64,000 bases of DNA, from the NCBI GenBank assembly GCA_965372835.1, contig CBDVDV010000001.1:4593-68592 (forward strand), in the 5' to 3' direction. Under the pieces are notes generated by a model that worked only from the letters and a program-made list of their open reading frames with translations, ran no database searches and was not told the DNA's origin. Below, piece by piece: positions 55,178 to 59,386 of the stretch. Origin of the DNA: an uncultured bacterium. Lineage in GTDB: Bacteria; Planctomycetota; DG-23; CBDVDV01. The translations under genes and the position numbers were made by a program. Numbering within the stretch: the stretch's first letter is position 1; each line of letters opens with the position of its first letter.

Positions 55178-56308
55178 TCACATCCGTCCTGCGGGGGGCC
55201 GGCCTGCCGAGCGAGACGCGGAAGCGACGCTCGCGACCCGTGCACCGGAGGCGGCCGCTGGTTGAGGAGCGGCCAAGGCCTGCTGAGTGAGTTTGAGGGC
55301 CCCGGAGACGATGCGCAGTCGGACCCCGTAGTTGGTGTGGTAGCCCTTCTGGCGCGTCGTGTACTGTCGATACACGACCACTTCCACATCGTCCTCGATA
55401 CTGTACTCCACGACTTCCTGGCCCACCCGGCTGACACTGCCCAGGCGCTGGCGTAGGCCGAAGCCCTGCCGCGCTAACAGCACACAGTAGAGGTAGGGAT
55501 ACGCCCGGCCCACGCGGTTGATGGACAGTTGGATCTGGAGGCCAAGGAACTCCTCCGGGGCCTCGTCGAAACGCACCTGGAGCCGCGCGTCCCGGGGCAG
55601 CTGGCGCTCCTGCTCGGGCTTGGCGAGTCCCCTCTTCTTCTTGGATGAGGCCTGGCGGGTGACGCTGACCTCCATCTGGGGGATGAGGGTAAGGCCCGAT
55701 GGAGAAAGTCCGCGGATGCACTGCTCGGCTTCCTGGAGGCACTTGACCTTGATCACCAGTTCCTCGGGTTTCCAGGTTGTCCGCAAGCCGCTCAGCCAGA
55801 TGGGCACGGACAGAGCCGCTGCATCCAGCAGCCACATCTTCTGAGCCGTGTTGGCTCTCCCCTCGGCAAAGTCAGCAAACACCCAGAGGGGCCCGAGCGG
55901 CCCAAACCGGCCCATGTCCCCCAGCCACGCAGCGACCAACAGGACCACGTAGACCGCTGCCAGGAGACTGAGAAGTCCCGGCCAGGAAGCCAGGTTGAAG
56001 GGGCTGCGGGCCCATCGGCGGGACCGCTCGGCCGTATCCAGCACTCCTTGAAACTCGTCCAGCGTAACCTGCTCCCACCTGCGCTTGCCCCGCAAACGAG
56101 GCTTGTTCCGAATCCCCCGGCTGGCTCCCAAGAGCGCCCCGGCCAGCACCAGCACCCAGCCCACCCACACCGAGATCAGCACCTGGAGCATCAAACCGAG
56201 GACCAGACAGGCGGTGATGACGGCCAGCCTCACCCGGTAGTCGAGGCCGCCGATGAGAAAGCGCACCTCGTACTTGTCTTCACGTTCTGGTTGGTAGAAC
56301 CTGACCAT
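55178..56308 (-). CDS. Hypothetical membrane protein, third gene of the Cys-repeat / radical SAM operon
   Basis: N-terminal TM helices (LAVITACLVLGLMLQVLISVWVGWVLVLAGALLG). Start overlaps the radical SAM stop by 29 nt. Large C-terminal soluble part. Confidence 0.65.
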   Translation of the reverse strand: MVRFYQPEREDKYEVRFLIGGLDYRVRLAVITACLVLGLMLQVLISVWVGWVLVLAGALLGASRGIRNKPRLRGKRRWEQVTLDEFQGVLDTAERSRRWARSPFNLASWPGLLSLLAAVYVVLLVAAWLGDMGRFGPLGPLWVFADFAEGRANTAQKMWLLDAAALSVPIWLSGLRTTWKPEELVIKVKCLQEAEQCIRGLSPSGLTLIPQMEVSVTRQASSKKKRGLAKPEQERQLPRDARLQVRFDEAPEEFLGLQIQLSINRVGRAYPYLYCVLLARQGFGLRQRLGSVSRVGQEVVEYSIEDDVEVVVYRQYTTRQKGYHTNYGVRLRIVSGALKLTQQALAAPQPAAASGARVASVASASRSAGRPPAGRM

Positions 56309-57686: not shown

Positions 57687-59386
57687 CAGTGCGCTCCCCC
57701 GCTCACGCACGCCCCGTGGCAGGCCGAGTGACACGCTGAGTGGCACGCCGAGTGACAGGCACTGTGACACGCTGAGTGACAGGCGTCGTGGCAGGCGGTG
57801 TGGACATAGCAGGCGCTGTGGCAGGCATCGGATTTGATGAAAGCAGCGTAGTTGGTGGCCGCTGCGGGCTGGTGTTCCTCGACGGAGCGTCGCATGCGAT
57901 CGATGCGGTCTCCCCGGTCGTAGTCGTCGTTGTAGTAGTGGTGATAGTAGTACCCGTAGCGGCGGGGATAGCGCTCACCCCAGGCGTACTCATGCTCCTC
58001 GTCCATGTTCTCGGGCGTGGTGGAGCGGGCCAGGGCGGCGAAGAGCCCGCTGTAGTACTTCTTGGTGGCGGGCAGGTCGGAGTCCCAGCACTTGCGCTGG
58101 ACGCCGTCGGATAGTTCGGCGTAGAGCCCGTTGAGCCGCCTCTGGGAGAGGGTGCCGTCGGCCTGGACGGTGTCGAGGAAGAGTTTCTCGTAGGAGTTTC
58201 GGGGTTGGTAGCGAAGGGAGGTGCGCTCGATGGTGAGGGGATCCTCGCTACGGATGTAGAGGGCCCCCCGCTGCTCCAGGTCGGCGCAGATGAGGCAGGT
58301 GATGGTGCTCAAGGGGATGTCCAAGAGCAGCCCCGCCTCGATGACGTTCAGGCGCGCGATCTTCCCCTTCTTGCGGAAGGTGGCCACCTTGATTTTGGGT
58401 GGCACCCAGATGTTGCTGTCCCAGCGTACCTCCTCCAGCGCTTCGCCCGCTTGCTGCAAAGACCCGTGCTTGAGACCCATGGCCACCACGGCAGCCACCA
58501 CCAGCACCACCACCGCCAGCACGGCCGCCAAAGGAATCCCCTTGCCCAGTTTCTTGACCGCCCCGGGGATTCGGCCTTTCTCGATTCTCGCCCCTACACC
58601 GACCGCTTCCTCGGCGCGGGTGCTGCCGAGCGTGGGGAAATACCTTGCGGCGATGTACTGCTGGACGAGGAAGTGGAACTCCTTCGGTGCCGACTTCTTG
58701 TGCAAGAGGATGGTGAGCCAGTTCTTGCCCTGGTAGGGCGTGGCCCGGTAGTCGATCTTGTACTGCTCGTTCATGAACTTCTCAGTGCGGAAGGTGACCT
58801 CCTCGAGGAACTCGGGTGCGACCTTGAGCACGTTCCCTTCGGCCGCCACGCGTTCGGGCGGCACCTCGATGGGGTAGTGGACGTAGACGGTGTAGTGCTC
58901 CAGCGCTTCCGCCCGTTGTACGGGTGCCCAACCCAGGACGACCAGTTGACCCAGGCCCGGGGCCTCCGTCAGTCCCAGGTTCTTACTGGCCACCAGGTCG
59001 GCGGCATAGTGGACGATGTAGGTGGTTTCCCCTGGCCCGAAGGCCTGTTTTCCGGCCAGCACTACGTCGTACTTACGGTCCGAGACGTGGGCGATGGAGA
59101 GGGGGTAACGGCGCCCACCGGCTTGGGCGTGGGAGGTCTCGAAGTTGAAGACCGGGGTCTCCTGCATCCCTTCCAGGTAGAAGCCGTGCATCTTGCCGCT
59201 GGTGACGGTCCAGCGCAATTTGTAGACGATGTCGGCCTTGCCGTCCTGGCGCAGCGACAGATCCACCTCCACCCAATGCAGTTTCGCGGAGACGGCTGCC
59301 TGGGCCGTCGGCGCCAGGACCCAGAGGAGCGCCACGACCAGGGCCGGCAGTAGTAGTCGACGGACTTCAAGCGCTCGCCTGAACAC
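57686..59386 (-). CDS. Signal-peptide/TM protein (DUF2207-like architecture) ending in a tandem (Ala-Cys-His-Ser)n repeat; candidate substrate of the adjacent radical SAM enzyme
   Basis: Signal peptide [30 protein letters not shown]. TM helix [22 protein letters not shown]. Tyr/His-rich segment. C-terminal [48 protein letters not shown]. Confidence 0.8.
   Translation of the reverse strand: [566 protein letters not shown]
57700..57832 (-). repeat. Imperfect tandem 12-nt repeats encoding (ACHS)n
   Basis: Plus-strand units such as gagtgacaggca / ctgtgacacgct / gagtgacaggcg / tcgtggcaggcg. Synonymous variation between units keeps the peptide repeat exact. Confidence 0.8.

Follow-up and report, generated by a model that had tools for sequence, protein, structure and literature searches.

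The DNA analysed here is a stretch of 64,000 nt from an uncultured bacterium of the Planctomycetota (contig CBDVDV010000001.1 of assembly GCA_965372835.1), referred to as a whole as the window. On its minus strand, to which all gene and motif coordinates of the cassette refer, lies a compact gene cassette in which a membrane protein ending in a Cys-His repeat is encoded directly upstream of a radical S-adenosylmethionine (SAM) enzyme. The membrane protein, g1 (57686-59386), has 566 aa, spans the membrane once and is the presumed substrate of g2 (56280-57686), an enzyme of 468 aa in which a putative RRE (the recognition element of RiPPs, peptides made on ribosomes and then modified post-translationally) precedes radical SAM and SPASM domains. 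The third core gene, g3 (55178-56308), encodes a membrane protein of 376 aa. The TGA of g1 and the ATG of g2 have one A in common (TGATG, 57688-57684), and g2 and g3 overlap by 29 nt. A sequence-only reading of the window had described these three minus-strand genes as one unit; the coordinates, the TGATG junction and the 29 nt overlap were all verified in the open reading frames (ORFs) and the DNA, but that reading overlooked a fourth, co-directional gene. This gene, g0 (59465-59854), encodes a cytoplasmic protein of 129 aa and is an optional first member of the cassette, located directly upstream of g1 in 26 of the 84 loci described below.

The tail of g1 (57689-57829; residues 520-566) contains 10 Cys and nine H-x-A-C units and includes (ACHS)4. 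It had been described as a period-4 Ala-Cys-His-Ser repeat; the repeat and the C-terminal sequence were given exactly, but the register that is conserved is H-x-A-C. Per-column conservation makes the tail the most conserved part of g1. A typical tail has 10 Cys, and 7-10 H-x-A-C units are present in 88 of 95 tails. Ala occupies position -1 for 829 of ~910 Cys, and His position -3 in 757 of ~910 Cys contexts. Of the 92 irregular inter-Cys segments, those with a spacing between Cys other than 4, 54 place His at -3 of the next Cys and none (0/92) places it directly after the previous one (+1); CYVHTAC, CFTHSAC and CVHDAC are examples of irregular segments in which H-x-A-C is kept. That insertions are tolerated while H-x-A-C is kept suggests a motif that is read locally, by an enzyme or as a chelate site, and speaks against a helical stripe of strict period 4. 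The variable position of the unit is filled by S, D, T, G, N or A, and the tail closes with an invariant ACVSGG-type end. At the DNA level the 12 nt units are only 73 % identical to one another, and the window copy, like 33 of 79 orthologues, draws its Ser codons from both the AGY and the TCN families. Thus, the repeat is under protein-level selection and is no artefact of the DNA. AlphaFold2 (AF2) gives no confident structure for the tail, which is drawn as a helix with a predicted local distance difference test score (pLDDT) of ~40.

Immediately before the first Cys lies an aromatic segment, NYAAFIK (57830-57850), which is conserved in g1 alignments with the consensus [YF]xxF[IRM]xS; F516 is at least 90 % conserved. 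Since RREs bind leader strands, this segment is a candidate recognition element for the RRE of g2, by analogy with known RRE partners.

An exhaustive phmmer search with the g1 core returned 309 cluster representatives. Full-length g1 homologues at 22-28 % identity keep the terminal Cys-His array, and the tail therefore counts among the features that define the g1 family. Its presence in g1 orthologues, on which the sequence-only reading depended, was found in essentially all of them, down to this level of identity. Three high-GC gene calls (P0138, P0226 and P0163) read the repeat DNA out of frame (...LPQRLPLGLPQCLPLRVSQRVPLGL...); frameshifts in assembly or annotation easily lose the tail and may hide family members.

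Two sets of loci bear on the association between tail and enzyme. The first comprises 84 loci fetched through g2 homologues, with clustering of all flanking ORFs on 83 of them. The second came from metagenome contigs, which were scanned at the DNA level with a degenerate pattern that matches a run of four C-H-x-A units, no g1 homology being used. In the first set, 83 of 84 loci have a Cys-His tail upstream of the radical SAM gene, and the stop and start codons often overlap; in 82 the tail reaches the radical SAM start or stops just 5′ of it, and L051 is the 83rd. The g1 core is detectable in 81 of the 84 loci and g3 in 78. Two loci were considered as true exceptions and rejected: L051 does have the tail, extended by a Gly/Ser tract (GGSSGGGGASGGW), and in L036, the sole locus without a tail, the contig is cut 93 nt short of the radical SAM gene.

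The pattern scan returned 80 metagenome loci, of which 66 are genuine tails, all on g1-like ORFs. Among these 66, g2 is nearby in 59, g3 is followed by the contig end in two (both belonging to a subgroup with the order g1-g3-g2), and less than 800 nt is available downstream in five. No genuine tail among these 66 pattern-found metagenomic tails lacks g2 despite adequate flank. Another 13-14 of the 80 represent simple repeats of DNA that fall in short, spurious ORFs, and one more belongs to a separate system, L113, described below. The association of tail and radical SAM enzyme holds in both directions, and the observation is real and far beyond chance. Conservation of a Cys-repeat protein beside the enzyme, which had been proposed as a check, is thus borne out in 83 of 84 loci from ~20 phyla and, in reverse, in the 66 metagenomic tails. 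Clustering of the flanking ORFs of 83 loci revealed no other broadly conserved gene besides g1, g2 and g3, and neither a conserved protease nor a conserved exporter.

Several variants of the cassette form recognizable groups. In L116, L117, L128 and L156 (also L109 and L164) the tails start with YEH[AS]ACHS and have ten regular units, and the gene order is g1-g3-g2. L086, L137, L143 and L144 have a divergent tail variant, with a g2 of only ~39-40 % identity. The tails of L135 and P0263 have an inserted Val (ACVHDACHS...ACVSKF/ACVSHF), and in L135 the radical SAM gene is placed upstream of g1.

The g2 family is large, with 2,900 matches at E<=1e-20 and 50-60 % identity across phyla. In a scan with one genome per species, at least 484 species genomes carry a g2 relative. 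Among the best 80 of these at least 484 genomes, nearly all of which are metagenome-assembled genomes, the phyla and classes include Armatimonadota, Planctomycetota, Elusimicrobiota, Omnitrophota, Sumerlaeota, Abditibacteriota, Kiritimatiellia and Lentisphaerota, as well as WOR-3, Hydrogenedentota, Nitrospinota, Gemmatimonadota, Verrucomicrobiota, Riflebacteria, Nitrospirota and others. The cassette itself, as represented by the 84 loci, ranges over ~20 bacterial phyla, mostly uncultured. On the contigs of three g2 homologues (80 %, 74 % and 61 % identity) the order is a 129-aa gene, a ~555-aa gene, the radical SAM gene and a ~340-378-aa gene, and each of the three has a g1 stop codon that overlaps the start codon of g2. 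In these relatives the tails of g1 are almost letter-identical to that of the window, with g1 bodies down to ~40 % identity. The closest g2 relatives are encoded on metagenome contigs; among named phyla, Armatimonadota comes nearest, with ~59-60 % identity.

The assignment of g2 as a radical SAM-SPASM enzyme, made from the letters of the window, is upheld by both Pfam families, PF04055 (Radical_SAM) with 90.3 bits (gathering score 29.5; E=2e-25) and PF13186 (SPASM) with 38.1 bits (gathering score 21.5; E=1.9e-9). The radical SAM motif C145-x3-C149-x2-C152 (57231-57254) occupies invariant columns. The SPASM Cys set (C360, C374, C377, G387-x4-C392 and C429-x2-C432-x5-C438-x3-C442; 56361-56567) contributes eight C-terminal Cys that are invariant in 16 sequences. 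Additional invariant Cys are located outside the standard motifs, with C156 and C158 (FCYAxCxC; 57213-57224) directly after CX3CX2C and C111 (the GC of VMGCLGEG; 57354-57356) in the linker that follows the RRE; AF2 confidence is low around residues ~153-163.

The N-terminal domain of g2 (residues 32-110; 57357-57593), previously read as a PqqD-like recognition domain, required a closer comparison. PqqD (PF05402) was not detected in the full-length window protein or in residues 1-133, so that the window copy misses the Pfam cut-off. Across the family, however, 11 of 14 orthologue N-domains have PqqD as their top Pfam match (best E=3e-4), with no other Pfam family recurring, and the best Protein Data Bank (PDB) profile match of the domain is the lasso-peptide RRE TfuB1 (6jx3_B, E=0.09). 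In the AF2 model of g2 (pLDDT 75) residues 44-109 are predicted to form a beta3-alpha3 winged helix at pLDDT 85-94, with strands at residues 44-47, 52-55 and 59-62 and helices at 65-75, 80-89 and 91-109. The best full-length Foldseek matches of g2 are SkfB and SuiB, over 421-449 columns; by profile, the closest solved relatives are SkfB, PqqE, SuiB and CteB. The catalytic core starts at residue ~105-118, as in the RRE-bearing SkfB, SuiB and CteB. Predicted fold and family-wide matches together support the acceptance of this domain as an RRE.

None of the NCBIfam cut-offs is reached by g2. The best score is for AhbD (168 bits against 500), followed among known maturases and cofactor enzymes by PqqE (123 against 381), MftC (117 against 265), StsB (NF045574; 109 against 625) and PapB (NF047865; 77 against 340). 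The SCIFF maturase (TIGR03974) and QhpD (TIGR03906) are not among the best 25 g2 matches. The closest models include the tetrapyrrole enzymes AhbD and NirJ, both far below cut-off. In PADLOC and PHROGs only the radical SAM core of g2 is matched, to viperin or generic radical SAM models, with no matches for g0, g1 or g3. A defence system or phage origin was rejected on this basis, nothing beyond that generic core being found.

The body of g1 contains all of the features read from its sequence earlier, namely 566 aa, a signal peptide, one strong transmembrane (TM) helix and a Tyr/His-rich segment. The TM helix lies at residues ~284-305 (58472-58537; hydropathy 3.09; AF2 helix 286-319). The AF2 model (pLDDT 80) predicts an extracytoplasmic beta-sandwich at residues 33-246 (pLDDT >90) and a cytoplasmic, winged-helix-like helical domain at 348-455 (pLDDT ~90). 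Lys and Arg are enriched on the C-terminal side of the TM helix in 37 of 51 orthologues, with the opposite bias in seven. Together, the signal peptide, the lone TM helix and this charge bias put the tail on the cytoplasmic side, in the compartment of g2, which has no TM segment.

A resemblance of g1 to DUF2207 proteins, first suggested by the sequence-only reading, stands at the family level but not for the window copy. The DUF2207 N-domain (PF09972) scores 14.2-16.1 bits in window g1 against a gathering score of 24.4, yet it matches 9 of 34 g1 orthologues (best E=1e-8). LemA (PF04011, E=7e-58), with which DUF2207 genes are canonically paired, is encoded directly upstream of g1 in 5 of 83 loci, including L017:3804-4415; none was found in the window. 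Additionally, L051 (4200-6000; Bacterium UASB270, DF820464.1) encodes a variant g1 whose ectodomain is a different one that looks TPM/YgcG-like by eye and whose cytoplasmic domain and Cys-His tail are as in the family, followed up to the stop codon by GGSSGGGGASGGW, a classical DUF2207/TPM Gly/Ser tail. In this locus a spacer of ~330 nt precedes the radical SAM gene, and g3 is located ~3 kb further downstream. By sequence, window g1 is a distant relative of DUF2207 and not a member. No NCBIfam model matches g1 at E<=0.1. A mention of DUF2207 in a paper on 5-thiohistidine was considered as a lead to His-Cys sulfur chemistry and set aside, its authors concluding that the two are unrelated.

The other two proteins have fewer recognizable features. 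Hydrophobic segments are found in the N-terminal half of g3, followed by a conserved soluble C-terminal domain. g0 has no TM segment and occurs in its 26 loci at 48-86 % identity. No relatives of g0 or g3 were found in Pfam, NCBIfam or the PDB, where profiles of both gave only noise. In two database proteins (P0182 and P0229) the N-terminal part of g1 is apparently joined to a C-terminal domain like that of g3 (QFQMAINNGPNGEVPYVYAVF...), either by genuine fusion or through misassembly.

Taken together, g1, g2 and g3, with g0 in some lineages, probably constitute a cassette for post-translational protein modification in which the modified tail stays on g1. Judged from sequence, the tail is quite probably the substrate of g2. 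The enzyme would dock via its RRE on the aromatic segment just upstream of the tail and then work through the H-x-A-C units one by one, in each of which SAM would be cleaved reductively, a hydrogen abstracted and a small crosslink formed within the motif, for an expected change of -2 Da per unit. The full SPASM domain would hold two auxiliary Fe-S clusters. In one version (option A) a thioether would join Cys-S to the His located three residues upstream, like the crosslink formed by NxxcB on NxxC, where Asn-Cbeta is linked to the S of the Cys three residues downstream (PMC11851443). This version fits the RRE and full-SPASM architecture of g2 and its nearest structures. In the other (option B) His-C2 would be joined to Ala-Cbeta in a three-residue cyclophane, as by HaaB, which links His1-C2 to Ala3-Cbeta on HAA within the motif Omega1-X2-X3 with an aromatic Omega1 (PMC11499958). 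A cyclophane would explain the invariant His and Ala and leave the ten thiols free for metal. Each specific chemistry, drawn by analogy, can be put forward only tentatively; the computation does not separate them, and the cyclophane is as plausible as the thioether.

Since no conserved protease or exporter accompanies the cassette, the product would stay on g1, and a protein-derived cofactor would be a better comparison for the system than a secreted RiPP. The modified tail would remain at the inner face of the membrane as a rigid metal-binding or redox-active array; a crosslinked or metal-binding array kept on the protein is the probable outcome. The most far-reaching form of this proposal is a previously unseen protein-derived prosthetic group, in which ~nine crosslinked His/Cys units hold metal or relay redox equivalents on a DUF2207-like, receptor-shaped protein that serves a housekeeping-type role across ~20 phyla. 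This form is possible but doubtful.

Several points weigh against tail modification by g2 as proposed. The proposal gives g3 and g0 no role, and since no NCBIfam cut-off is reached, the reaction type of g2 is unreadable from homology. Even when the window domain is taken in isolation, PqqD reaches only 13 bits (E=0.14), below its gathering score of 23.4. With regard to the cyclophane version, g2 bears no resemblance to cyclophane-synthase models, YhhB, AmcB, XyeB, FxsB and GrrM all being absent from its best 25 NCBIfam matches. A His(i)/Cys(i+3) array could bind metal without covalent change. Lastly, a tail and an enzyme conserved to this degree (g2 at 50-60 % identity across phyla) are unusual for RiPP systems, so that g2 could have another, housekeeping-like substrate.

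In the alternative that survives best, the tail is an unmodified metal- or Fe-S-binding array along a helix, perhaps oligomerizing. The substrate of g2 would then be something else, such as g3 or a small molecule, or the tail would pass clusters or electrons to g2. Cys-lined copper-storage bundles and the His/Cys-rich tails of metallochaperones offer a comparison. H-x-x-C is a classical helix-compatible chelating spacing, the AF2 drawing of the tail is helical, albeit at low confidence, and a unit number as tightly fixed as 7-10 in 88 of 95 tails is what a defined count of metal sites would produce; AhbD and NirJ, moreover, are among the closest models to g2, although far below cut-off. This alternative does not, however, account for the RRE-like peptide-binding domain of g2 or for its translational coupling, seen in most loci, to the end of the tail ORF. 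The segments CYVHTAC and CVHDAC, in which period 4 is broken and H-x-A-C kept, fit a local enzyme motif better, and the invariant Ala at -1 has no obvious chelating role. On balance an unmodified array is unlikely, though it deserves to be taken seriously; an unmodified-thiol metal site is in any case compatible with the cyclophane version of the proposed modification. A multi-haem CX3CH site was also considered and rejected, the tail being cytoplasmic and its register H-x-A-C rather than C-x3-C-H.

It is considerably less probable still that the cassette is a classical RiPP system, in which the tail as core peptide would be crosslinked, cut from a 500-aa 'leader' and exported as a bioactive peptide. 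An RRE/radical SAM/SPASM enzyme beside its substrate is indeed the arrangement of sactipeptide and ranthipeptide clusters, and L113 provides three radical SAM genes beside a small protein of secreted type whose C-H-x-A tail is similar. Yet a conserved protease or transporter is missing from the 83 loci, the tail is cytoplasmic and is carried by a membrane protein, and the would-be core is nearly invariant across ~20 phyla, unlike the cores of antimicrobial RiPPs. The g1 body is itself conserved and folded, and a precursor of 566 aa is no short leader-core peptide. That the repeat is incidental low complexity or an assembly or annotation artefact, adjacent to the radical SAM gene by coincidence, can be dismissed: out-of-frame entries (P0138, P0226 and P0163) and simple-repeat matches (13-14 of 80) do occur, but the idea is refuted by two-way co-occurrence in ~150 independent loci, by protein-level conservation with synonymous codon variation, by the fixed unit number and by the conserved terminal ACVSGG motif.

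With tail modification by g2 as the favoured explanation, the cassette can be compared with systems of established or predicted function. The sactipeptide enzymes SkfB and AlbA, the ranthipeptide enzymes CteB and PapB, and NxxcB have the same three-part enzyme as g2 with the substrate gene directly upstream; they act on short, repeated motifs that contain Cys, and the Cys-S of the NxxcB product is joined three positions upstream, which is the His-to-Cys spacing of the g1 tail. Thioether maturases act on short leader-core substrates, whereas here the target is the tail of a 566-aa membrane protein with a near-invariant H-x-A-C motif and without a protease or exporter. In the triceptides of HaaB, repeated motifs are typical, and the His-x-Ala of the tail units corresponds to Omega1-X2-X3; however, triceptide motifs have no counterpart to the invariant Cys of the tail, and the substrate here is a membrane protein.

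PqqE/PqqA/PqqD, MftC/MftA/MftB and QhpD/QhpC likewise combine a radical SAM-SPASM enzyme and an RRE-type partner with an adjacent, highly conserved target. In QhpC the product stays in the functional protein, which carries Cys thioether crosslinks. The cassette differs from these cofactor systems in that its target consists of many repeated units and is carried by a membrane protein. Nor do the 83 loci have a conserved dehydrogenase gene, or another gene that would use a cofactor, near the cassette.

Tandem four-residue Cys units as a radical SAM/SPASM target have been proposed in silico by Haft for the ACGX system (TIGR04340/TIGR04341) and for the CXXX-repeat radical SAM family (TIGR04115), and the A-C dipeptide of ACGX is shared with the g1 tail. 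The targets in both systems are short peptides, unlike the 566-aa membrane protein seen here with a His in every unit; to our knowledge, neither system has a known function. NCBIfam scores of g2 and g1 place the cassette outside both families: g2 reaches 104.4 bits with TIGR04340 against a cut-off of 400, and TIGR04115 (cut-off 350 bits) is not in the best 25 g2 matches, the lowest of which scores 76 bits. The claim that the tail represents a different substrate class would hold for its position on a large membrane protein, but period-4 Cys targets as such have in-silico precedents.

DUF2207/LemA and TPM (YgcG-type) proteins have the same order of elements as g1, that is signal peptide, extracytoplasmic beta domain, TM helix, cytoplasmic part and low-complexity tail. 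The tail of DUF2207 proteins is a Gly/Ser tract, whereas that of g1 is a sharply conserved H-x-A-C array. No literature linking canonical DUF2207 proteins with radical SAM enzymes was found. Repeated Cys motifs are also turned into metal sites in proteins modified by multinuclear non-haem iron enzymes (MNIOs), as in the oxazolone/thioamide copper sites on EGKCG repeats and the bufferins. In those systems, however, the enzyme is of a different type, the substrates are periplasmic or secreted, and the motifs are others.

The separate system found by the pattern scan, L113:638-5229 (JACCDQ011219294.1), encodes a 144-aa signal-peptide protein (2506-2940, minus strand) with a C-terminal repeat of the C-H-x-A type. 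It is flanked by three radical SAM/SPASM genes and a 226-aa ORF and has no homology to g1, g2 or g3. Its enzymes resemble maturases of the cyclophane or anaerobic sulfatase-maturating enzyme (anSME) type, with DynA, AmcB, FxsB and GrrM as top matches, below every NCBIfam cut-off. C-H-x-A-type repeats may thus have been recruited as radical SAM targets more than once.

Other features of the window, whose G+C content is ~65 %, surround the cassette. On the same strand, 5′ of the cassette, are a gene for a protein of 179 aa with a Big_5 domain, which is bacterial Ig-like (60007-60546; E=3e-8), and a 350-aa ORF (60521-61573) that by appearance looks like a pyridoxal phosphate (PLP)-dependent PALP-type enzyme. 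A PALP gene (PF00291) also precedes g0 in L001, the closest relative; the Big_5/PALP neighbourhood is local synteny only, with no wider conservation. Convergent with the cassette, on the plus strand, is a gene for a polytopic membrane protein of 398 aa (53898-55094) with a weak DUF2079 match (E=0.0012, below cut-off), and a gene of similar size is located at this position in L001. Elsewhere on the plus strand are a large bacterial signal recognition particle RNA (21795-22059; RF01854, 197 bits), a tRNA-Ser(GGA) (13978-14070) and a tRNA-Gly(CCC) (47124-47198).

What is already known of such a system comprises the enzyme class, the logic of an adjacent substrate, the RRE and the use of repeated small motifs. 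A tail on a DUF2207-like membrane protein as the type of substrate, the H-x-A-C motif and the obligate membrane partner g3 are new; retention of the product on the protein, and a breadth and conservation like those of cofactor systems, would be new as well. Neither NCBIfam release 20 nor Pfam contains a curated family for g0, g1 or g3, and homologues are named in databases only as 'hypothetical protein' or 'radical SAM protein'. No description of the cassette was found in the searchable literature, and papers beyond that reach may exist.

Among the sources of new peptide chemistry, radical SAM/SPASM maturases are a major one, and their known targets are short peptides, the QhpC subunit and sulfatases. 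If the proposed modification is correct, their range would extend to the tail of a full-length membrane protein, on which a radical SAM enzyme would install a multi-site cofactor rather than make a secreted peptide. The combination of 50-60 % identity in g2 with a near-invariant 40-residue target resembles the pyrroloquinoline quinone (PQQ) and mycofactocin systems and not antibiotics. Given this cofactor-like conservation, the cellular role of the cassette may be a basic one in the mostly uncultured lineages that carry it, and its modified tail would provide a first functional clue to the low-complexity tails of DUF2207/LemA/TPM membrane proteins.

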